Of a DNA stretch of 64,000 bases, positions 25,800 to 36,948 are shown in pieces. Made by a program: the position numbers and the translations under genes. Numbering within the stretch: position 1 is the first letter of the stretch; every line of letters starts with the position of its first letter. The DNA is from Thermoproteota archaeon (GTDB taxonomy: Archaea > Korarchaeota > Korarchaeia > B14-G2): assembly GCA_037917675.1 (NCBI GenBank), contig JAVCBW010000034.1, positions 20,489 to 84,488 on the forward strand, in the 5' to 3' direction. The notes beneath the pieces were generated by a model. The model was not told the DNA's origin and did no database searches. It saw only the letters and a list, made by a program, of their open reading frames with translations.

Positions 25800-26582
25800 C
25801 TAAGTGGTGTCACCACACACGCAGAAGGCTTCGTTAAGCAGGTCATAAACCTCTCTCAGCCCCTCTCCTGTTACAGCTGAAGCTAGCGCCACCCTGCTTG
25901 CTGCCCTATACTTCACGAGCACCCCAGCTATCTCAGCTGCCATCTCTGCGATGACTCCGCCTGAATCAGACTGCACAGCTTCCATAGCCTCACTCTCATC
26001 CATCTCCTCAACCATCCTCTTCAGGAGGACCCTCCTGTCATCTGGAAGCACATCCACCTTGTTCAGCACAGCTACCATTGGAGCTTCAAGCCTCAGCTCA
26101 ACTGCCTTAGCTAGAGCTAGCGTCAGCACTGTCTCAGCTAAGGTTGATGGGAGAGCTGCATCTATCAGGAAAGCCCCTGCTACCCTAGCGTTCTCCTGGA
26201 GGTAAGAGACAAGCCTAGGCCCAGCCTCCCTGAAGGCGAATATCTCAAGCTGCCCAGGAGTGTCTATCAGCGTGACTCCAGCACCTGAGCTCCAAAGTGG
26301 AGCAAGAAGCTCATCTGCTGTCTCAGCTATCCTCTCGACAGCTCTGACCTGAGCGCTATTAGGCCCAAGCCCCTCCTCCTTCATGATGCTCCTGACTGTG
26401 AAGTGCTCTCTGATGTCGTAGTCTGGCTTATAGGGTAGGTACTCTGCTCCAGGATCCAGGTTGACTGCTAGGTGGCTCTCACCTATCTCAGCTAGCAGCT
26501 TGCTGAGTGCAGAAACCATCGTGGACTTACCTGCTCCAGCTGTGCCAAGCAGTAGGACGCATAGCATAGCCACCGCTATCAT
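25800..26582 (-). CDS. GPN-loop GTPase
   Basis: 260 aa; P-loop GTAGAGKST and the eponymous GPN motif (EGLGPNSAQ). Confidence 0.8.
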   Translation of the reverse strand: MIAVAMLCVLLLGTAGAGKSTMVSALSKLLAEIGESHLAVNLDPGAEYLPYKPDYDIREHFTVRSIMKEEGLGPNSAQVRAVERIAETADELLAPLWSSGAGVTLIDTPGQLEIFAFREAGPRLVSYLQENARVAGAFLIDAALPSTLAETVLTLALAKAVELRLEAPMVAVLNKVDVLPDDRRVLLKRMVEEMDESEAMEAVQSDSGGVIAEMAAEIAGVLVKYRAASRVALASAVTGEGLREVYDLLNEAFCVCGDTT

Positions 26583-26639: not shown

Positions 26640-27356
26640 GTGGTGAGAGGTATGGTGCCTCCGATAATCATGCAGATATGGCAGATGCTGGTAAGCTGGG
26701 TTCCAAGGCTGATAGCTGTCATCATAATACTGCTGGTAGGCTGGATCATAGGGAGGCTGCTAGGCAAGGGTATCTCAAGGGTGCTTGACAAGGTGGGGCT
26801 AGATGATGCTCTGAGGAAGACCATATTAGGGAAGGCTATAGAGAAGTCTGGGATGAGCATAGTAGGCTTCTTCGACTTGATAGTGAGGCTCTTCGTCTAC
26901 CTTGTAGCGATATTCGCTGCAGTAGACTACCTGGGCATAGAGGTCCTCAGCGCGTACATGAAGGCTGTAGTAGAGTACCTGCCAAGCCTGCTAGCTGGCA
27001 TCTTTGTGATCATAGTAGGCTTCATAGTCTCAGACTTCATAGGGGACACGCTGGCTGCAGTAGGCAAGGAGGCTGAAGTAGCCTATGCCTCGCTGTTCGC
27101 TACAGGCCTGAAGTTCTTCCTCTACTTCATAATAATAGTCATAGGCCTCCAGATGATGAAGATCGACGTGAGCATAATATACCTGTTCGCTAAGGCAGCA
27201 GCTTGGGGTGCTGCAGTAGGCATCGGAGCAGGCTTAGGCATAGCAGTCGGGTGGGGCTTCAAGGACTATGTAGCCAGGAAGGCAGAAGAGTGGACTAAGA
27301 CTCTATCAGAGGCGGCAAAGAAGGCAGAGGAGGGTGTTGGCAAGAAGGCTACTTGA
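26640..27356 (+). CDS. Polytopic membrane protein with repeated TM-helix modules
   Basis: 238 aa; repeated hydrophobic helix followed by basic/GL motifs; charged C-terminal tail. Confidence 0.45.
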
Positions 27357-29070
27357 GCATGGGCATTCTGATTCCCTCCTTTTTTACAGTCTGGATTGCC
27401 TTCTCATAGCCTGCGTCAGCATGCCTTACGACACCTATACCAGGGTCTACTGTAAAGACTCTGAGAGCTCTCTCCTCAGACTTCTCTGTACCATCTAAGA
27501 CTAGGCTGAAGCCTGCATGTATGCTGTAGCCTATGCCTACTCCTCCACCATGGTGGACTGCGACCCATGTTGCGCCAGCTGCTGTGTTCAAGAGAGCATT
27601 GAGTATAGGCCAGTCTGCTACAGCATCTGAGCCATCCTTCATCCCCTCAGTCTCTCTCATCGGTGAGGCTACGCTGCCAGAGTCAAGGTGGTCTCTACCG
27701 ACCCATATAGGCCCAGCTAGCTCCCCTCTCCTTACCATGTCATTTATCATCTTGCCGAACCTAGCTCTCTCACCGAAGCCAAGCCAGCAGACCCTAGCTG
27801 GGAGCCCCTGGAACCTCACGTGCCTCCTAGCCTTCTCAATCCACCTACACAGCCTCTTGTTGTAGCTGAACTCACTTAGTATCGTGTCGTCGAGAGCATA
27901 TATGTCCTTTGGCTCACCAACTAGGCTAGTCCACCTGAATGGTCCTCTACCCTCCTCGAACATAGGCCTTATGAAGGCTTGGACGAACCCTGGGAATGCA
28001 AATGCCTCAGCATACCCTGCCTCATAAGCCATTCTCCTGATGTTGTTCCCGTACTCGAAGACGACACTGCCCTTCTTAGCGAACTCAACCATTGCTTCAA
28101 CATGCTTCCTCATCGACGCTAGAGCTCTCCTGACATACTCTCGTGGGTCGCTTTGCCTCAGCCTAGCAGCCTCCTCAACTGAAAGGCCTTCTGGGATGTA
28201 TCCGCTAAGCGGGTCATGGGCTGCAGTCTGGTCTGTCACGACATCTGGTATCACACCTCTCCTGAGGAGCTCAGGGAATACTGTGGCAGCGTTGCCTAGA
28301 AGCCCTATGCTCAATGGCCTCCTCTTCTCCTTCGCTTCCAGAGCCATGTCTATAGCCTTGTCGAGGTCATCTGTCCACGTGTCTAGGAAGCCATGCCTGA
28401 TTCTCCTCTCAATCATCCTCCTGTCGACTTCAACTATCAGCCCAACGCCTCCATTCATCGTTATCGCTAGTGGCTGAGCTCCACCCATCTCACCTAAGCC
28501 AGCTGTCAAGACAAGTCTCCCCTCGAGGCTTCCTCCAAAGTACATGTCTGCAGCATACCCGAATGTCTCATAGGTGCCCTGAAGTATCCCCTGTGTCCCT
28601 ATGTAGTTCCAGCAGCCAGCTGTCATCTGCCCGAACATTATCAGCCCCCTCCTCTCAAGCTCCCAGAAGTGCTCCCAGGTAGCCCACTTAGGCACGAGCA
28701 GAGCGTTGGCAAAAAGTATCCTAGGAGCCATCTCATGGGTCTTGAACACAGCTACAGGCTTCCCACTCTGGATTACAAGGGTCTCATCAGGCTCCATGGT
28801 GAGCAGCGTGTCTACTATGGCCTCAAAGCACTCCCAGTTCCTAGCTGCCTTCCCAGTCCCACCGTACACAATGAGGTTCTTAGGGTCCTTAGCTACCTCA
28901 GGGTCAAGTACATTGAATAGCATTCGTAGAGCTCCCTCAATCTGCCAGCTCTTACAGTGGAGCTCAGCTCCCTTGATCACATGAACCTCTCTCTTCTCAG
29001 GGTTATAGTAGCCTTTATCAACCAGAACCTTAAGAGGCCTCGCCTCAACAGCTAAAGCTCTCTCACTCAA
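27349..29070 (-). CDS. hutU: Urocanate hydratase
   Basis: 573 aa; [24 protein letters not shown] and overall urocanase pattern. Confidence 0.9.
27380..27385 (+). terminator. Oligo-T (T6) candidate archaeal terminator
   Basis: TTTTTT lies 24 nt after the stop of the 26640-27356 gene, inside the hutU 3' coding region on the other strand. Confidence 0.35.
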
Positions 29071-29719
29071 GCTTACACCAGTCTACAACCATGCCAGCAC
29101 TTAAAAACATAGCTGGCAGAGCTACAAAGCTTAAAGCAGGAGCTGGCCTACAGCTGGCATGCTCAAGGTCACAGGAGAGAAGCTCCCAATCTGATGGAGA
29201 GGGTACTTGTAGAGAGCGAAGCTGACGGAACCCATCCTATCTCCTTCGCTTGTGGAGGGATCTTCTACACATAGCTCACTTAAGCTCTCACTCATCAGCT
29301 AGCCCTGCTATCTTAGAGGTCAGAGCTGGCTAGGCTCCTCAACACTATGGCTTGCATCAGCTCTAGCAGATGAGAGAGTAGATGGCATGTTTACTCTATA
29401 GGAGCCGATGAGAGGAGGCTGAGAAGGCTCCCGAGAGCCTTAAGCAGATGGGGCTAGCAGGCTACATGGAGGTGGTGCCCAGAGATGTGAGAGCTGCTAT
29501 AAGAGGCCTCCACCTACTACTCAACTTAGCCTTCATAGGTGGAGGGAAAGAGGAGTACAGCGCCCATCTACGACTCCTGTCAGCTAGGCTCAGGAGGGGG
29601 TCTGCTGGCTCACAGCGTGATATCACCACACATGAGCTAGCAGGCTTTCTCAGGGAGATGACAGAGGCACGCTGCTGGATGACGACGATACTACCAGCTG
29701 GCCAAGCAGGCATAAGCTG

Positions 29720-31522
29720 TCAATCAAAGCCTACTGAGCTCTTCGCTACACGTAGGATGTCAGGGAGTGCTTCTCTAACCTTAGCTATGTCTCTGTAGTA
29801 GGGGCGGTCTTCCCTTATCGGGAGGCCTATCAGCCTCCCTATATGGCTGTAGGCTGCTCCTGTCCCTGCTCCGAGGCTGCTGGCGCTCAGCTCTGCTGCC
29901 TCCAGCCTCAGCGATATAGCCTGAGAAGCGTTTAGCAGCTCTATTGCAAGCACCGTCTTCGCGTTCTCTAGGATCTCTCTAGCCTTCAAGGCTGCAGTCA
30001 TGCTCATACTCACATAGTCCTCCTGGTTGGCTGATGTCGGTATGGTGTCTGCTGAGGCAGGGTGTGCTAGCACCTTGCTCTCTGATGCTAGTGCTGCAGC
30101 AGTATACTGTGTTATCATGAGCCCAGACATCAAGCCGCCTCCCTCTATGAGGAATGGTGGCAGCCCCCTGTTTAAGGTAGGGTCAAGTAGCCTGAATGTC
30201 CTCCTCTCTGAGATCATGCTCACATATGTCAAGGCTATTGCTAGCGTGTCTAATGCGAGAGCTAGAGGCTGCCCATGGAAGTTTGCTCCAGAGATGACCT
30301 CCATGCTCTCTGGGAGGACCAGAGGGTTATCGCTTACAGAGTTTATCTCGACTTCAACTATCTTCCTAGCGAACTCTATGGCCTCTCTCAGCGCGCCATG
30401 CACGACTGGAGCACACCTTATCGAGTAGGCGTCTTGTACTCGCCCTAGCTCAGCTCTCGTGAAGTCCATGTCTGAGAGGATCTTCTTAGCCTCGCTAGCA
30501 GAGCACATGGCTAGCAGCCTATTCTCTCCTTCAGCATGGACTCTGATCCCTGCTTTAATGGATATGGCTTCAGCTAGCTTAGCTGAGCTCACACCTAAGG
30601 CTGAAAGCAGCCTCCTACTCACCTCAAGCTTAGCTCCACCAGGAGCCTCCTCGAGCTCAGTGAGCTCAGCTAAGCTGAGCCCCATCCTCCTCAGCATAGG
30701 ATCTGAGCTTGCCCCTACAAGCCTGCTTCCAGCTAGGAACGCTCTAGCTAGCCTAGCGCTCTCCACCTGCCCGCTATGCGGCCTGAGCTCATGTAGCCTG
30801 CTGTCAAGGTGGTCTGTTGGCGAGAGGAGGGCCTCCATGGTCATCGCAAGCGCTAGGTCAGCTAGCTCAGCTAGAGCCTGGCTCTCATGGAGTAGGAGGC
30901 ATGCTAAGCCTGCTGTAGCCTGCGTCCCATTGTTGAGTGCAAGCCCCTCCTTGTAGCTGAGCTCAAGAGGGCCGCCGACCTCTCTCAGAGCACTCTTCAG
31001 CTCCTCTCCTCGGACTCTCCTACCTCTCCAGTAGGCTTCCCCCTCCCCTATCAGAGCTAAGGCCATGTGGGATAGAGGAGCTAAGTCTCCACTTGCTCCA
31101 ACAGACCCCCTCTCAGGGACAACTGGAACCAGATCCCTGTTGAGGGCTTCGGCTAAAACCTCTAGCACATGATACCTGACACCAGAGTAGCCTCTAGCAA
31201 GAGTGTTTAGCCTCACTAGCATCATTGCTCGAACAACCTCTCTAGGAAGCTCTCTCCCAACACCAGCTGAGTGGCTGAGGATCATGTTCCTCTGGAGCAA
31301 GCTAGCCTCCCTAGAGCTGACCCTGCTTTCAGCAAGAGCACCAAAGCCTGTTGTAACCCCATATACGACAGCTCCCCCCTCAACTAGCTCAACTAAAGCC
31401 TTCCACGCCTCCTCAACCCTCTCCCGCACCCCCTCAGCTATCTTGACCTCAGCTCTCCCATAAGCAACATCTACGACATCTCTGATGGTTAAGCCCTCTC
31501 CACTCACAACCACAGCCCTCAA
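29720..31522 (-). CDS. hutH: Histidine ammonia-lyase (MIO enzyme) with about 85-aa internal insertion
   Basis: 600 aa; MIO-forming GASGDLAPLSH; NNGTQ; VQDAYSIRCAPVVHG; TTG start. Confidence 0.85.
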   Translation of the reverse strand: MRAVVVSGEGLTIRDVVDVAYGRAEVKIAEGVRERVEEAWKALVELVEGGAVVYGVTTGFGALAESRVSSREASLLQRNMILSHSAGVGRELPREVVRAMMLVRLNTLARGYSGVRYHVLEVLAEALNRDLVPVVPERGSVGASGDLAPLSHMALALIGEGEAYWRGRRVRGEELKSALREVGGPLELSYKEGLALNNGTQATAGLACLLLHESQALAELADLALAMTMEALLSPTDHLDSRLHELRPHSGQVESARLARAFLAGSRLVGASSDPMLRRMGLSLAELTELEEAPGGAKLEVSRRLLSALGVSSAKLAEAISIKAGIRVHAEGENRLLAMCSASEAKKILSDMDFTRAELGRVQDAYSIRCAPVVHGALREAIEFARKIVEVEINSVSDNPLVLPESMEVISGANFHGQPLALALDTLAIALTYVSMISERRTFRLLDPTLNRGLPPFLIEGGGLMSGLMITQYTAAALASESKVLAHPASADTIPTSANQEDYVSMSMTAALKAREILENAKTVLAIELLNASQAISLRLEAAELSASSLGAGTGAAYSHIGRLIGLPIREDRPYYRDIAKVREALPDILRVAKSSVGFD

Positions 31523-31758: not shown

Positions 31759-32345
31759 GTGTGTCGCCACCCCTCAGCTGAGGGATCAGAGTGGAAGCTG
31801 ATAGCTCCATGTGGCCTCTACTGTGGTGAGTGCACAGCCTTCCTCAATGGAGAGTGTAGTGGATGTAGAGCTGGTGTTGGGCTAGCTAAGGAGTATAGGA
31901 GGCTTTGCAAGATTGCCAAGTGCTCTGAGAGGAAGGGTATCCAGGTCTGCATAGACTGTGATGAGTTCCATGTAGGCTCTTTGAGCTCTTCAAGTCTGAG
32001 GATCTAGAGTCTAGTGCTTGGCTCCTAGATGTGTGGGTTAACATGAAGCAGGTCAGGAAGCTAGGGATATCAGAGTTCCTGAGCAGGAGGAGAAGCCGGG
32101 TTGAGGAGAGGAAAGCTTGTGCTAGGAGCATGGGAGTCAGCTTCTGTGACGAGTGTGAAGACTGGCCATGCGACCTGCTAAAGAGGCCTGTACTAGCCCC
32201 CATGGACCTCAAGCTGTTCGAAAGGCTCATGGGGGCACGAGGAGCCCTAGCTGAGCAGAGCTACGAGGTATACCCAACATTTCCAGCGTGTAGGAGCATC
32301 ATGGAGGTAGCCTGCCATGCCAGCTCTCTGAGCTCATCTCCATAG
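31759..32345 (+). pseudogene. DUF3795-like Cys-rich protein, reading frame broken by an apparent 1-nt deletion
   Basis: ORF 31759-32007 (CGLYCGECTAF...CIDCDEF) continues in the -1 frame as PCRLFELF... into ORF 32031-32345 (CDECEDWPC); break at the CC run 31968-31969. Confidence 0.5.
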
Positions 32346-32548: not shown

Positions 32549-32636
32549 GGCCGGGGTGAGGTAGCCTGGTTAGCCTGGGGGCCTGTGGAGCCCCAAGCCC
32601 GGGTTCAAGGCTATAGAGAGAGTCCCGGCCCCGGCC
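32549..32636 (+). tRNA. tRNA-His (anticodon GTG) with encoded G-1 and a roughly 13-nt intron in the T-loop
   Basis: Hand-folded cloverleaf. Acceptor 32550-56/32629-35; D-arm with A14 and G18G19. Anticodon stem GGGGC/GCCCC with loop CTGTGGA. T-stem CCGGG 32599-603 / CCCGG 32624-28 encloses 20 nt instead of 7. G-1 (32549) sits opposite discriminator C (32636). Confidence 0.8.
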
Positions 32637-33220: not shown

Positions 33221-34843
33221 TTGAGCAGGGTGTTTAAGGCTCCACGTGGAACTAGGGACTTTACCCCAGAGGAGATGGCTAAGCGTAGCTATGTTGAGAG
33301 GGTCATCAGGAGGGTCTTTGAGAGCTATGGGTTCCAGCAGGTTCAGACACCGATCTTCGAGGCATTCGCCCTCTTCGCTCTGAGGTCTGGTGAGGAGATA
33401 AGGAGCAAGATGTTTGTCTTCACAGTAGACGGAGAGGAGATGGCTCTGAGGCCAGAGGTGACGGCAGCAGTCTGCAGGATGGTCTCCTCAGGTGAGCTAG
33501 ACCTGTCTAAGAAGCCTCTCCGCCTATACTACATAGGGCAGTGCTACCGCTATGAGGAGCCTCAGGCAGGCAGGTATAGGGAGTTCTGGCAGGCTGGAGT
33601 AGAGCTCATGGGCTCACCTAACCCTGAGGCTGACGCTGAGGTCATAGCTCTAGCTGTAGACGTGGTGAGGAACCTCGGGATAAGAGGCTTCGAGCTGAGA
33701 GTCGGAGACATGCGTGTCATGAGAGGCCTCCTAAGCGAATCAGGTGTGCCAGAGGAGGCTCAGAACAGGGTGATAAGCTCTCTGGATGTGCTGGAGAGCA
33801 GCATAGAGAAGCTCTCGCTCTACGCTGACAGGCTCAGAGGCAGCGGAGAGCTTGCTAGAGAGGAGCTAGCTGACCTGGGCAGGAGGCTTGATGAGCTCAG
33901 AGCATGGAAGGAAGAGGAGTATAGGAAGATGTCCTCTGGAGAAAGCGAGCTGCCAGCTAGCTTAGAGCCTCTCCTGGAAGTCGACCCCCTAGTATACAGG
34001 GTGAGGGAGCTATATGAGAGTGGCAGGAGAGAGGAGCTAGCTGAGCTCATAGAGAAGTCGATCCGAGAGCTCAAGGAAGCCCAGAAGGCAATGTGGGTCT
34101 ACTATGGAGTAGAGTATGAAGATGGAGTGGAGGTGAAGAGAGCTAAGCTGAGCACCAGCACAGCTGAGGCTCTCCTCAAGATGATGGACCTACATGGCCC
34201 AAGAGACAGCGTGCTAGATGCTGCCAAAAGCATACTCTCCAGCTATCCCTCAGCTCTAAGAGCCTTAGACGCATACAGAGAGGTCCTAGACCTGCTCCCA
34301 CACCATGGGGTAGAGGAGTATGTTGCTGACCTCAGCATAGCTAGAGGCCTAGAGTACTATACTGGGATAGTCTTCGAGATCCACTGCCCATACCTAGGCG
34401 CTCAGAAGCAGGTCTGTGGAGGAGGACGCTATGACAAGCTCGTAGAGGAGTTCGGTGGCCCGAGCATGCCAGCTACAGGGTTCGCCTTAGGATTCGATAG
34501 GCTAGTCTTAGCTATGGAGAAGTCTGGTGTGAGGTTTCCGCCACAGAGGAGAGCAGATGTCTATGTGGCTGCACTCTCAGCTAACATAGTCCCATATGCC
34601 ATAGAAGTCTCCAGGAAGCTCAGGGAGGCAGGGGTAAGAGTAGAGATGGACACTATGAGGAGAAGCATCAGGGAGGCGCTTTCCTTTGCATCCAAGATGG
34701 AGATGCCGTTCGTAGCGATCATAGGTGAGAGGGAAGCTGCTGAACACAAGGTCACCTTGAGGATCATGGGTGAGAGAAGGCAGGTCACACTCACCCCAGA
34801 GGATGCAGCTAGCCTAGTAGCTAGCAGGGTGGGATCACGGTAG
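33221..34843 (+). CDS. hisS: Histidyl-tRNA synthetase with enlarged insertion domain
   Basis: 540 aa; KAPRGTRDF, motif 2 YRYEEPQAGRYREFWQ, RGLEYYTG, GGGRYD; TTG start preceded by GGAGGTG. Confidence 0.9.
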   Translation: MSRVFKAPRGTRDFTPEEMAKRSYVERVIRRVFESYGFQQVQTPIFEAFALFALRSGEEIRSKMFVFTVDGEEMALRPEVTAAVCRMVSSGELDLSKKPLRLYYIGQCYRYEEPQAGRYREFWQAGVELMGSPNPEADAEVIALAVDVVRNLGIRGFELRVGDMRVMRGLLSESGVPEEAQNRVISSLDVLESSIEKLSLYADRLRGSGELAREELADLGRRLDELRAWKEEEYRKMSSGESELPASLEPLLEVDPLVYRVRELYESGRREELAELIEKSIRELKEAQKAMWVYYGVEYEDGVEVKRAKLSTSTAEALLKMMDLHGPRDSVLDAAKSILSSYPSALRALDAYREVLDLLPHHGVEEYVADLSIARGLEYYTGIVFEIHCPYLGAQKQVCGGGRYDKLVEEFGGPSMPATGFALGFDRLVLAMEKSGVRFPPQRRADVYVAALSANIVPYAIEVSRKLREAGVRVEMDTMRRSIREALSFASKMEMPFVAIIGEREAAEHKVTLRIMGERRQVTLTPEDAASLVASRVGSR

Positions 34844-36030
34844 TGAATATAGCTGTAGTAGGGGAGGCAAGCTGTGGCAAGTCGATGCTCATAGGAGCTC
34901 TCCTCCATAGCCTCAGAGAGGTCCCAGATGGGTTCGTGGAGAGGCTCAGGAGAGAGTCTAAGGCTGTGTCTGGAGAGGACAGGGCCTACGCCTACCTGCT
35001 AGACAAGAGCATGGAGGAGAGGAGGCTAGGCCATACGCTTGAGGTTAAAGCCTGCAAGCCACTAGAGCTCCATGGCACCTCAGTTAGGCTAGCTGACACA
35101 CCTGGCCTCGAGAGAGGTGCTCACGGACTCATGTCAGCGTTGATGCAGGCTGATGCAGTCTTAGCTGTAGCAGACCCGACATCACATTCTATAGCTAAGC
35201 TAGAGGACTCTCTCATGACAGCAGCTCTCCTCTCAGTAGACCAGTGTATAGCTGCTATATCCAAGATGGATGCTGTAGGCTACTCAAAGCATGCATATGA
35301 GTCTACAGCACTGAAGATCGAGAGGGCAGCTGATTCAGCTGGCATAGTCCTCAAGGCTATAGTCCCAGTGTCAGCTAGGGAGCTCGAGAACATAGCTGAG
35401 CCAGGAGGGAGGATGAGCTGGTATAGCGGCCCAACGCTAGCTGAAGCTCTAGCTGAGCTGAGAGAGCCAGAGAGGCACCTAAGCCTCCCAATGAGGCTCC
35501 CAGTCCAGAGGTACTATGAGAGGCCAAATGTGATAGCAGGTGTGATCGCTACAGGTGTAGCTAAGGTAGGCATGGAGATCGTGCTAGCTCCATCAGGTGC
35601 CAGAGGGGTAGCTGAATCCATTGAGTCATGGGGCACTAGGCTAGAGGAAGCTGAGGCAGGTGAGGATGTTGGAGTCAAGCTCAGGGGGGTAGCGAGATAC
35701 CAGGTGAAGAGAGGCTTCCTAGCTGGGCCAGCTGACAGCCCACCTAAGTCAGCTAGAGAGCTCACTGCCAGAGTGCGTGTCAAGGTGCCTGAGGCCATCA
35801 GGCCTAAGAGGTCTCTGATGGCATATGTCCACCAGGCTAGAGCTCAGTGTAGGATTCTAGAGGCAAGCCATGAAGGAGAACACACTCTGCTCAAGCTTAG
35901 AGTAGAGGATCCACGCCCACTTCCAGTAGACGAGCATATGCCTGTAGTCAGCAGGATAGCTCTCAGAGCCCAGCTGAAGGAGTCATCTAAGACTGTAGCT
36001 GGAGGAGTCTGCACTGAGGTGGCAGAGTGA
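34843..36030 (+). CDS. Divergent EF-Tu/EF1A/SelB-like translational GTPase paralogue
   Basis: 395 aa; G1 GEASCGKS, G3 DTPGL, G4 SKMD, G5 VSA; domain II-like GVIATGVAKVGMEIVLAP; GTG start overlaps the hisS stop (TAGTG). Confidence 0.7.
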   Translation: MNIAVVGEASCGKSMLIGALLHSLREVPDGFVERLRRESKAVSGEDRAYAYLLDKSMEERRLGHTLEVKACKPLELHGTSVRLADTPGLERGAHGLMSALMQADAVLAVADPTSHSIAKLEDSLMTAALLSVDQCIAAISKMDAVGYSKHAYESTALKIERAADSAGIVLKAIVPVSARELENIAEPGGRMSWYSGPTLAEALAELREPERHLSLPMRLPVQRYYERPNVIAGVIATGVAKVGMEIVLAPSGARGVAESIESWGTRLEEAEAGEDVGVKLRGVARYQVKRGFLAGPADSPPKSARELTARVRVKVPEAIRPKRSLMAYVHQARAQCRILEASHEGEHTLLKLRVEDPRPLPVDEHMPVVSRIALRAQLKESSKTVAGGVCTEVAE

Positions 36031-36357
36031 AGGCTACGCTGAAAGCCTACACCTACATGGAGCTCATGAGGTGGTGTTGGATCAGCCCCTAGAGCACAGA
36101 TGGCTCCATTAGAAGGTCTGCTGGCAGAGGATTCGTGGCGAGGCTGAGAATATAGCTAGAAGCCTCCAGATAAGAGATTCGTCAGCTCTAGCAGAGCTCA
36201 CCTCAGCAGGGTCAGCCATAACGCCAGCTCTCTAGAGGAGGGTGAGAAAGCATACAGGATAGCAGAGCGCTCAGCGAGCAGCCACATGTGATAGCTTCCA
36301 TGCAGATGAGGCCTAAGCTGAGTAGCATGGGGTGCTGAGGGCTGCATCCAGCTTGCT

Positions 36358-36948
36358 CTAGAGCAGCCTAGCAGGCCTCCTGAGCTTCGGCTCAACAGGC
36401 TTATATGGATAGGGTTCTCCTAGCCTATCTAAGCTAGCAAGCTCACTGACGTCTCTTCTAGGCGTAGCGCTTGGCTTCTCAGCTGGGTAGCCAACCGAGA
36501 TTATCGCTACTGGTATGAGAGGGCGTTTCGCGCCAACAGCTTCAAGAACAGCTTCATCGCTAAAGGCTCCAACCCAGCATGTGCCGAGCCCAAGGCTTGT
36601 GGCAGCCAGCATGGCGAACGTAGCAGCTATCGTAGCATCCTGGATGCAGTAGAGCACTTCACCACGGCGCCCATATCTCACTCTAGACCTCTCAGGGTTA
36701 GCTAGGAAAACGAGGTCGACTGGAGCTTCAGCTATAAACCACTGCCCGAGAGCAGCTCTAGCCAGCTTAGCTCTAACACTCTTATCTCTCACGACAACTA
36801 TCTCATAGGCCTGTAGGTCTCCAGCAGAGGGCGCTGAGTTAGCTGCCTCCAATATGAAGCTGACAGCTTCATCAGAGACTTCCCTATCAGAGTATGATCT
36901 GACAGACCTCCTAGATGCAAGCACATCCACAAACTCCAAGCACATCAC
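36358..36948 (-). CDS. Nitroreductase-family FMN oxidoreductase
   Basis: 196 aa; RRSVRSY N-terminal motif and family-typical length. Confidence 0.8.
   Translation of the reverse strand: MMCLEFVDVLASRRSVRSYSDREVSDEAVSFILEAANSAPSAGDLQAYEIVVVRDKSVRAKLARAALGQWFIAEAPVDLVFLANPERSRVRYGRRGEVLYCIQDATIAATFAMLAATSLGLGTCWVGAFSDEAVLEAVGAKRPLIPVAIISVGYPAEKPSATPRRDVSELASLDRLGEPYPYKPVEPKLRRPARLL

Follow-up and report, generated by a model that had tools for sequence, protein, structure and literature searches.

An EF1A-like protein encoded beside a long histidyl-tRNA synthetase in archaea, most likely a GTP-binding, hydrolysis-impaired partner of HisRS or His-tRNA

Elongation factor EF1A and its relatives belong to the translational GTPases (trGTPases), which are among the best-catalogued protein families. 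In a 64,000-nucleotide stretch of a Korarchaeota contig (hereafter the window), the gene for a protein of this type starts on the last base of hisS, which raises the question of what an EF1A-like protein might do in such close association with a single aminoacyl-tRNA synthetase. An earlier note on this DNA had described the gene product as a degenerate EF-Tu/SelB-like GTPase, and had proposed an aminoacyl-tRNA-binding factor, possibly His-tRNA-related and GTPase-impaired, in view of its tight coupling to HisRS. The open reading frame is present as claimed, and its GTG start codon (34843-34845) and the TAG stop codon of hisS (34841-34843) overlap by one base (TAGTG). The features of this junction are as follows.

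33221..34843, + strand: hisS, long form, 540 aa; TIGR00442 at 388 bits, cut-off 287
34827..34845, + strand: translational-coupling junction; Shine-Dalgarno-like GGGTGGGATCAC within the 3′ end of hisS, followed by TAGTG
34843..36030, + strand: EF1A-like protein (EFL), 395 aa; NCBIfam EF1A at 212 bits; member of a hisS-linked clade

Relatives likewise show a GGTG-type element together with an overlapping or near-abutting start, an arrangement by which EFL would be made in step with HisRS. The sequencing runs that hold the EFL locus are DNA only, with no RNA runs among them. Both EFL and HisRS are small, soluble-looking proteins, and the MAGs are of thermophile type.

Pfam, NCBIfam and an AF2 model (pLDDT 91.1, pTM 0.90) agree on the three-domain EF-Tu/EF1A architecture that had been proposed, with a G domain at residues ~1-205, domain II at ~215-300 and domain III at ~302-395. 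Pfam detects GTP_EFTU, and GTP_EFTU_D2 scores 28.8 bits, just below its gathering cut-off of 30.3. The best PDB match found with Foldseek is the GTP form of Aeropyrum pernix aEF1A (3vmf, TM 0.92; GDP forms, 0.47), although the closed conformation of the model is no evidence of nucleotide state. Alignments to aEF1A are full-length (E = 2.6e-50 against PDB aEF1A). With A. pernix aEF1A (PDB 3vmf, 3wxm, 4cxg), EFL thus shares the fold at ~30% full-length identity, as well as the P-loop, the Mg-binding Thr, DxPG, xKxD and SAx; it differs in being ~30 aa shorter overall and in occupying a hisS context rather than that of aEF1A.

The affinity to SelB or to the archaeal SelB-like family aSelBL that was suggested earlier did not survive comparison with family models and a maximum-likelihood (ML) tree. 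Archaeal EF1A models TIGR00483 and NF008969 fit best (194 bits, cut-off 540, and 212 bits, cut-off 502), followed by CysN TIGR02034 (142 bits, cut-off 336), whereas SelB TIGR00475 reaches only 52 bits. In the tree, EFL lies inside the EF1A/CysN side and is split from the SelB-like/aIF2-gamma outgroup with support of 100/98. The paper that describes aSelBL presents it as a trGTPase paralogue of archaea whose G domain is disrupted, whose distribution is patchy and whose ligand is unknown, and the passages drawn on here mention no conserved aminoacyl-tRNA synthetase linkage (Atkinson et al. 2011, PMC3037878). A disrupted G domain and the lack of an assigned function, both traits given for aSelBL (PMC3037878, PMC4342817), are what would recommend membership of aSelBL for EFL. 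Given that aSelBL is SelB-derived while EFL stands on the EF1A side, and that the closest structure is that of aEF1A, we attach next to no probability to this assignment.

Ten rows form the EFL clade (support 100/99), which joins a four-row sister clade (98/92) and is set apart from aEF1A plus CysN (98/90); CysN forms a clade of its own (100/100). The genome's aEF1A sits with other Korarchaeota aEF1As, and the idea that EFL is a recent duplicate of the lineage's aEF1A, hinted at by a shared SKMD motif, was rejected since the EFL clade falls outside all aEF1As in the tree. Nor is EFL the only EF1A or aIF2-gamma of this genome, a possibility on which the proposal might have foundered: a canonical aEF1A (624 bits, cut-off 540) and aIF2-gamma are present, along with a GTPBP-like protein, aEF2 and aIF5B.

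If EFL is a paralogue with a role connected to HisRS, its position next to hisS should not be peculiar to this genome. Wherever the context of a clade member can be read, hisS lies directly upstream of EFL, usually overlapping it. This count comprises eight loci (the window, a congener, G023, P0011, P0012, P0013, P0015 and P0016), which cover seven of the ten clade rows, and the linked members share 25-42% identity, except for the congener at 79%. Three sister-clade members are also linked, in the orders hisS-M20-EFL, hisS-hisG-EFL and hisS-EFL-HDC-...-hisD-...-hisB. Labels of the MAGs that carry the family span Korarchaeota, 'Bathyarchaeota' and Odinarchaeota, and the flanking genes other than hisS vary between loci. 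By comparison, none of 80 ordinary HisRS control loci (52 of them extending 1.2 kb or more downstream) carries an EF1A-like gene. The conserved unit is the hisS-EFL module and not the surrounding genes. Together with the paralogue status of EFL, this linkage supports the core of the original proposal, a HisRS-linked, GTPase-impaired factor, and does so more strongly than could be seen from the letters of the window.

Of the 401 archaeal genomes sampled, some 398 lack EFL. Word-indexed searches for homologues barely registered the family, returning one close match and four more with a profile, and it came to light only in an exhaustive HMMER scan. A scan of genome contigs recovered the congener and otherwise ordinary aEF1A and CysN; second EF1A-like matches in two genomes (G103 and G124) were set aside, being duplicates of canonical aEF1A with no hisS beside them. 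For the EF1/SelB side in archaea, the 2015 census names only aEF1A, aGTPBP, aIF2-gamma, aSelB and aSelBL (PMC4342817). Our literature search turned up no relevant account of an EF1A-like/HisRS pairing, and an 'Ss-EF1A-like' entry considered as an earlier description proved to be only a model mRNA (PMC11698992). The EFL family is rare and apparently undescribed.

Off-consensus motifs, a long branch and an unusual amino-acid composition might be taken as signs that EFL is a decaying or functionless aEF1A duplicate that happens to lie beside hisS. However, comparison with the orthologue in the congener gives a dN/dS of 0.19-0.21 (0.09-0.15 for neighbouring genes), and so the EFL gene is not decaying. 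The reading frame is intact across all family members, the pairing with hisS is kept at the low identities given above and across different phylum labels, the family-specific residues are invariant, and the fold is predicted confidently. Conservation effectively refutes chance decay, whose probability we regard as very small.

The synthetase of the module is itself unusual, in that it carries an additional structural element.

33878..34279, + strand: extra helical insertion of HisRS, residues ~220-353; aligned to PDB 1wu7 in two parts, with the break at 219/354

The insertion adds ~110 aa at a place where the closest solved HisRS has only 25 residues, is predicted to be all-helical (pLDDT 86-97 in the AF2 model), and was not found in solved HisRS structures. 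All three genomes of the phylum that have EFL encode a long HisRS; in the 37 without EFL, HisRS measures 426-469 aa, with residues ~190-310 missing and no insertion. The insertion was likewise found at none of the 80 control loci, and a metagenome scan with a long-HisRS alignment returned ordinary short HisRSs only, with no new family members. All 11 EFL-linked HisRSs form one clade (SH-aLRT 99), apart from the HisRSs of related genomes, and because this is a single clade, the co-occurrence of insertion and EFL represents one or few evolutionary events and not many independent ones. Within it, the topology mirrors that of the EFL tree, and thus HisRS and EFL co-diversify. The constant position of EFL beside an unusually long hisS suggests a partner dedicated to the charging of histidine tRNA.

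Whether such a partner could work as a conventional GTPase may be judged from its G motifs, which agree with those reported in the earlier note.

34861..34884, + strand: G1/P-loop, G7-EASCGKS14; Walker-A GxxxxGKS kept, trGTPase-specific H-V-D-H replaced by E-A-S-C
35020..35046, + strand: switch I/G2, R60-RLGHTLEV68; Mg-binding Thr65 kept, gate residue Ile/Leu replaced by His64
35095..35109, + strand: G3, D85-T-P-G-L89; DxPG kept, catalytic His replaced by Leu
35260..35271, + strand: G4, S140-K-M-D143; motif shared with the genome's canonical aEF1A (AISKMD)
35371..35379, + strand: G5, S177-A-R

The statement that every one of these motifs is off-consensus was too sweeping. It holds for the His to Leu change after DxPG, for the replacement of HVDH by EASC and for the gates (V to A and I/L to H), all of which distinguish EFL from aEF1A, but not for Walker-A, the Mg-binding Thr, DxPG or SKMD. 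The last of these is a lineage trait and not a sign of degeneracy, since the G4 motif of the genome's own aEF1A is identical. P-loop residues G7, G12, K13 and S14 and G3 residues D85, P87 and G88 are invariant in the EFL family alignment. Judged by its motifs, EFL keeps the predicted elements for binding a guanine nucleotide and Mg (GxxxxGKS, Thr65, DxPG, (S/N)KxD and SAx), and is without those through which the ribosomal sarcin-ricin loop (SRL) would trigger hydrolysis, with His changed to Leu, the P-loop Asp to Ser and the gate residues altered.

A residue other than His after DxPG occurs in eight of 60 rows, all in this clade, as L, V, Y or D, which amounts to at least two losses; the 18 aEF1As compared all have His at this position. 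The early-branching members P0013 and P0016 and the sister clade retain the full GHVDHGKS/DxPGH/NKxD set, and the ancestral function of the family may therefore need hydrolysis and may differ from that of EFL. Members of the G023 type have lost G4 too (NLKE), and nucleotide binding may therefore not extend to the whole family.

EFL also departs from EF-Tu and aEF1A in the aminoacyl pocket of domain II.

35509..35667, + strand: domain II positions R223, W263 and D275 of the remodelled aminoacyl pocket

These three positions correspond to EF-Tu D216, F261 (T. aquaticus H273) and N273, which contact the aminoacyl group in EF-Tu and are Arg, Trp and Asp in the EFL family. The signature is family-specific and conserved, and it differs from that of aEF1A (D/H/N), CysN and eRF3-like rows. 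The domain II loop of EFL is also three residues shorter than in aEF1A, owing to a deletion after residue 226. Retention of EF-Tu E259 and R288, residues for the tRNA 3′ and 5′ ends, was rejected as evidence of tRNA binding; both are also present in CysN and eRF3-like proteins and thus do not single out tRNA binders. The EFL family does not conserve the K89/N90 pair that binds the 5′-phosphate.

The surroundings of the module in the window have a histidine theme.

~32549..32636, + strand: tRNA-His (GTG) with encoded G-1 and a ~13-nt T-loop insert; called by ARAGORN after insert removal
29720..31522, − strand: hutH, histidine ammonia-lyase; Pfam Lyase_aromatic at 588 bits
27349..29070, − strand: hutU, urocanase; Pfam Urocanase N, Rossmann-like and C-terminal domains

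ARAGORN and Rfam reported no tRNA in the unedited window, because of the T-loop insert; once this is removed, ARAGORN calls tRNA-His, which overturns the null result and bears out the placement of this gene 2.2 kb upstream of EFL. At one further locus (L050), a Lyase_aromatic gene is also found upstream of hisS.

A specialised aminoacyl pocket on an EF1A fold modelled in the closed form, linked to hisS and, in the window, to tRNA-His, would suit a ribosomal elongation factor reserved for His-tRNA(His), which would serve this tRNA as SelB serves Sec-tRNA, reading the 8-bp acceptor stem made with G-1 and delivering the tRNA to the A site. The complete GHVDHGKS/DxPGH/NKxD motifs of the basal members and the sister clade fit such a factor as well. 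Against this, EFL and most of its clade have L/V/Y/D in place of the catalytic His, with the P-loop Asp and both gates changed as well, such that neither canonical SRL-activated hydrolysis nor ribosomal release is expected; a canonical aEF1A is also encoded in the genome, and some 398 of the 401 sampled genomes do without EFL. We consider delivery to the ribosome improbable.

A different possibility is that EFL binds no tRNA and is instead a regulatory or energy-coupling G-protein subunit of histidine metabolism, with the adenylate-forming HisRS, also acting in a HisZ-like capacity, and/or the ATP-phosphoribosyltransferase HisG as its partner. The precedent is CysN, the GTPase subunit of the ATP sulfurylase CysDN, which is EF1A-derived, drives adenylyl transfer by the non-ribosomal, adenylate-forming enzyme CysD and is encoded beside its partner. 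CysN is the second-best family for EFL, hisG adjoins EFL in two relatives and a his-biosynthesis cluster does so in a third (neighbouring genes among the relatives include hisG, hisD, hisB, an HDC-like gene and an M20 peptidase), the linked HisRS scores above threshold with the HisZ model as well (280 bits, cut-off 272), and no tRNA-binding EF1A has pocket residues like those of EFL. However, hisG and hisD are found on a different contig in this genome, and hisS is the sole constant neighbour at most loci; annotated EFL neighbours are hisS and a nitroreductase, with no cysD-type gene among them. The EFL clade is separate from CysN, which keeps GHVDHGKS and DxPGH, has the pocket D/W-F/S and partners CysD rather than HisRS; EFL is without the catalytic His that CysN keeps, so that coupling to GTP hydrolysis is unlikely here. 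Moreover, the linked HisRS must serve translation, since it is the only histidyl-tRNA synthetase in the genome. A purely metabolic role is accordingly unlikely in our estimation, though less so than ribosomal delivery.

EFL is most likely a GTP-binding, hydrolysis-impaired partner of HisRS or His-tRNA. The fuller reading, in which an undescribed EF1A subfamily within a long-hisS module supplies a GTP-locked, HisRS-docked handler of His-tRNA, has in our judgment a slightly better than even chance of being correct. Binding of HisRS and of tRNA by EFL is suggested by gene order, co-variation and homology. EFL would hold GTP without ribosome-stimulated turnover, as a 'locked-on' pseudo-translational GTPase resembling yeast Ski7, and would dock onto HisRS, probably through the extra helical arm. 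The product of HisRS would then be handled by EFL, most plausibly as His-tRNA(His) held off the ribosome in the specialised pocket, with G-1 expected to give this tRNA an 8-bp acceptor stem. By chaperoning or sensing the charged tRNA, EFL could tie charging to histidine metabolism.

Precedents exist for separate parts of this scheme. Ski7 is a pseudo-GTPase of the EF1A/Hbs1 family that keeps nucleotide binding but not the catalytic His, and is regarded as an adaptor in the GTP-bound state rather than a switch activated by the ribosome. It is eukaryotic and Hbs1-derived and connects the exosome with the Ski complex; we know of no link between Ski7 and an aminoacyl-tRNA synthetase, and it shows no specific relation to EFL in the tree. 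Direct transfer of aminoacyl-tRNA from a synthetase to an EF1A-type protein is an idea associated with the Methanothermobacter LeuRS:aEF1A and mammalian ValRS:eEF1H complexes, among others. These use the general elongation factor, whereas EFL would be a dedicated, hydrolysis-impaired paralogue that shares its operon with a single synthetase carrying a matching insertion of its own.

A bolder version of this proposal, which we offer tentatively as possible but less than probable, is that EFL is the first synthetase-dedicated EF1A paralogue, GTP-locked on a purpose-built HisRS arm and specific for His-tRNA(His), whose histidyl moiety it would recognise in its Arg/Trp/Asp pocket along with the G-1 stem, so acting as a protein sensor or carrier of the charged tRNA that couples translation to histidine biosynthesis and catabolism. 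If this is true, such a protein would fill in archaea the role played in bacteria by attenuators and T-boxes. The EFL family would add a further subfamily to the trGTPases and would be a new way to organise the hand-over or sensing of aminoacyl-tRNA, and its series from full GTPase motifs to pseudo-GTPase would be useful for understanding how trGTPases lose ribosome dependence.

The EF1A-like protein analysed here (EFL) is encoded directly downstream of the HisRS gene, hisS, in the following arrangement:

~32549-32636, forward strand: tRNA-His(GTG), with an encoded G-1 and a T-loop insert of ~13 nt
33221-34843, forward strand: hisS, 540 aa, TIGR00442 at 388 bits (cut-off 287)
34843-36030, forward strand: EFL, an ORF of 395 aa

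As the earlier note had read from the sequence, the TAG stop of hisS, the sole copy in this 1.78-Mb genome, overlaps the GTG start of EFL by one base (TAGTG, 34841-34845). A GGTG-type Shine-Dalgarno element lies within the 3′ end of hisS at most hisS-EFL loci. The upstream tRNA-His gene described in that note is also present, despite the fact that neither ARAGORN nor Rfam (at gathering and E-value thresholds) reports a tRNA anywhere in the window; ARAGORN calls the gene once 11-20 nt are deleted from the region of the T-loop insert (TTCAA[GGCTATAGAGAGA]GT). This insert is probably a non-canonical archaeal intron, and the same blindness of the tools may hide other intron-bearing tRNAs of this genome. 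Just upstream of tRNA-His and hisS lie hutU (urocanase) and hutH (histidine ammonia-lyase) at 27349-31522 on the reverse strand, which give the neighbourhood a histidine theme. Two adjacent short ORFs of 82 and 104 aa (31759-32345, forward strand) both match DUF3795 and may represent one frameshift-split gene, and a GPN-loop/ATP_bind_1 family GTPase of 260 aa located ~9 kb upstream (25800-26582, reverse strand) is unrelated to the findings presented here.

The best profile matches of EFL are to archaeal EF1A, at 212 bits (cut-off 502) and 194 bits (cut-off 540), followed by CysN at 142 bits, and its closest solved structures are aEF1As (A. pernix 4cxg and 3vmf, E = 2.6e-50). An AlphaFold2 model, computed from an input alignment of 18 sequences (pLDDT 91.1, pTM 0.90), superposes on the GTP form of A. 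pernix aEF1A from its aRF1 and Pelota complexes with a TM score of 0.92 and an rmsd of 2.4 Å, versus a TM score of ~0.47 for GDP-form structures. Because a canonical aEF1A (624 bits, with GHVDHGKS and DAPGH motifs) and aIF2-gamma are encoded elsewhere in the genome, EFL is an extra paralogue and not the only orthologue of either factor. Also present in the genome are genes for a GTPBP-like protein and aIF5B and two aEF2-type genes (C57:66042-66521 and C53:82360-82776); the match to one of the latter contains an in-frame TAA, and the pair is reminiscent of EF2 paralogues reported from certain archaea (PMC6143161). Comparison with the 79% identical orthologue in the only congeneric MAG yields a dN/dS of 0.19-0.21, and the adjoining hisS, nitroreductase and CDC48 genes give 0.09-0.15. 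The EFL gene is under purifying selection, and EFL is a conserved, selected protein of the EF1A fold; that it is a functionless relic appears very improbable.

A word-indexed search for homologues recovered only the congener, and when 1.84 billion cluster representatives were scanned exhaustively with HMMER, a handful of proteins outscored ordinary aEF1As, namely P0011 (41% identity), P0012 (42%), P0013 (35%), P0015 (34%) and P0016 (31%). A very divergent member resides in G023, a genome of another family within the same class. In a maximum-likelihood tree (LG+C20, 63 rows), EFL and its relatives form a 10-row clade (support 100/99), joined by a 4-row sister clade (98/92 together). This group is separate from the clade that unites canonical aEF1A and CysN (98/90), and its exact position relative to them is less certain than its monophyly, given long branches and skewed amino-acid composition. 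The SelB or aSelBL affinity entertained in the earlier note was not borne out: the SelB profile scores 52 bits against 212 for EF1A, and the SelB-like and aIF2-gamma outgroup splits off at 100/98. Assignment of EFL to aSelBL thus retains almost no credence, and EFL also fell outside canonical aEF1A and CysN in all membership tests. By fold and descent it belongs to the EF1A family, within which it very probably represents a distinct HisRS-linked subfamily.

This census of the family combined one single-sequence exhaustive scan with profile searches of ~550 genomes. Of 401 sampled archaeal genomes, only 3 carry the family; two other genomes with double EF1A-like matches carry duplicated canonical aEF1As. 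All members derive from MAGs or metagenome contigs labelled Candidatus Korarchaeota, Bathyarchaeota ex4484_135 or Odinarchaeota, and all are named 'hypothetical protein' at source, except for one sister-clade 'elongation factor 1-alpha'. Full-text literature searches found no published description of the family, and no such archaeal subfamily is among those listed in the 2015 trGTPase census (PMC4342817).

Further EF1A paralogues were encountered in these searches. A protein of ~400 aa with canonical GHVDHGKS, DAPGH and NKMD motifs, encoded in two Korarchaeota-phylum genomes (L040, G023:C18; L042, G040:C22), falls in the CysN clade and brings the EF1A-family genes of G023 to three. The divergent, unnamed EF1A-like proteins P0019, P0020, P0021, P0032 and P0045 lie outside the aEF1A, CysN and hisS-linked clades; the P0021 gene (L056) does not adjoin hisS and has a cyclase gene downstream. 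Archaeal metagenomes appear to contain a greater diversity of uncharacterised EF1A paralogues than the published census.

The association with hisS is not specific to this genome. At all 8 loci of the EFL clade with a readable neighbourhood, hisS lies directly upstream of EFL, usually with an overlap of 1-14 nt, and linkage extends to 3 sister-clade loci.

Gene order at hisS-EFL loci
Window: hisS-EFL, TAGTG overlap
Congener: hisS-EFL-OsmC-like
G023: hisS-EFL-BtpA
P0011: hisS-EFL
P0012: Lyase_aromatic (HAL-type)-hisS-EFL-MoCF
P0013: hisS-EFL-hisG
P0015: hisS-EFL
P0016: HDC-like-hisS-EFL
Sister-clade locus 1: hisS-peptidase M20-EFL
Sister-clade locus 2: hisS-hisG-EFL
Sister-clade locus 3: hisS-EFL-HDC-like-...-hisD-...-IMPase-hisB

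Only hisS is a constant neighbour; the others vary. No EF1A-like gene occurs at any of 80 control loci encoding ordinary metagenome HisRSs (median span 411 aa; 52 with at least 1.2 kb downstream). As to the variable neighbours, the Lyase_aromatic gene on the P0012 contig (L050) precedes hisS, and matches to PF02329 (pyruvoyl histidine decarboxylase) adjoin the hisS-EFL pair on two unrelated contigs (L182, 3015-3881; L055, 1253-2194), one of them within a his-biosynthesis cluster, an odd place for a decarboxylase. The OsmC-like gene of the congener (L033, 4471-4860) overlaps the end of EFL; its remnant in the window (36027-36400, forward strand) is split over three reading frames, interrupted by stops, and is therefore a pseudogene or an assembly error.

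The partner synthetase is itself distinctive. In the 3 of 43 genomes of this GTDB phylum that carry the factor, HisRS measures 528-543 aa and aligns contiguously to the query from the window, and the 37 HisRS-bearing genomes lacking the factor encode proteins of 426-469 aa (one a cut fragment) in which query residues ~190-310 are missing. Residues 220-353 of the query correspond to just 25 residues in the closest solved HisRS, 1wu7, and AlphaFold2 confidently predicts the extra region to be an all-helical module containing two helices of ~28 residues (pLDDT 86-97). In a HisRS tree from which a gap filter had removed most insertion columns, 11 of 11 factor-linked HisRSs group in one clade (SH-aLRT 99). 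The branching order within this clade agrees for the most part with that of the factor tree, and the related Korarchaeota family has HisRSs that fall in a different clade. This pattern argues that hisS and EFL evolve together as a unit, partly decoupled from organismal lineage through either cassette transfer or ancient paralogy followed by loss, and that the co-occurrence of insertion and factor reflects few independent events. EFL appears to be translated together with this long HisRS, and the two co-evolve. The sequencing runs in which the locus was detected are DNA runs, with none from RNA.

The motifs quoted in the earlier note are all present (G7-EASCGKS14, LGHT65, D85-TPGL89, S140-KMD143 and S177-AR), but their description as uniformly off-consensus holds only in part. 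The Walker-A GxxxxGKS, the Mg-binding Thr, DxPG and xKxD survive, and the G4 sequence SKMD is no sign of degeneracy, since the canonical aEF1A of the same genome shares it. Family members show no variation in the P-loop G-x4-GKS or in D-x-P-G; they retain G5 and the Mg-binding Thr/Ser, and only the G023 type lacks NKxD. In EF-Tu and EF1A, the residue following DxPG is the catalytic His, positioned by the sarcin-ricin loop. It is His in 52 of 60 EF1-family rows compared, and all 8 exceptions (L, L, L, V, Y, Y, Y and D) belong to the EFL clade and require at least two losses; the basal member P0013 has retained the His. In the window's EFL, Ser additionally replaces the P-loop Asp, Ala the gate Val and His the gate Ile/Leu. 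This lost catalytic apparatus disfavours, for the window's protein, a role as a SelB-style dedicated elongation factor, which we regard as unlikely.

The aminoacyl pocket has also changed. In the EF-Tu ternary complex of Nissen and colleagues from 1995, Asp227, His273 and Asn285 (T. aquaticus) reportedly contact the aminoacyl ester, amino group and side-chain pocket; these correspond to E. coli EF-Tu positions 216, 261 and 273. aEF1As carry D (17/18), H (18/18) and N (18/18) at these positions, and the EFL family carries Arg (7/10; sister clade 4/4), Trp (10/10) and Asp (14/14 including the sister clade). CysN and eRF3-like rows differ again from both, and a domain II loop near the pocket is three residues shorter in the EFL family. 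Such family-specific, conserved residues indicate a pocket that is remodelled yet strongly constrained, as would be expected for a specific ligand rather than for generic aminoacyl-tRNA or no ligand. The window's EFL has kept its nucleotide-binding motifs and lost its ribosome-activation residues, and its aminoacyl pocket is re-specified. The tRNA 3′/5′-end residues E259 and R288 are kept; we rejected this as proof of tRNA binding because non-tRNA-binding relatives keep both. A possible but doubtful alternative is that EFL binds no tRNA and, in the manner of CysN, serves HisRS or HisG as a regulatory G-protein.

EFL resembles several known systems in logic. Ski7 is a GTP-binding, hydrolysis-dead relative of EF1A and offers an analogy, as do CysN, which is related to EF1A and was recruited as partner of an adenylate-forming enzyme, and the channelling complexes of aaRS and EF1A. 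It differs from all three in being a dedicated paralogue within a synthetase operon whose synthetase bears a matching insertion.

The reading that we consider somewhat better than even is that EFL is a GTP-binding, non-turnover, HisRS-docked holder or sensor of the HisRS product, tied to histidine metabolism. EFL would bind GTP without ribosome-triggered turnover, dock on HisRS, probably at the extra helical arm, and hold or sense its product off the ribosome, most plausibly His-tRNA(His). EFL would thereby couple charging to histidine metabolism, whose genes are among its neighbours: these include hutU and hutH in the window and, at the loci of relatives, HDC-like genes as well as hisG, hisD and hisB.
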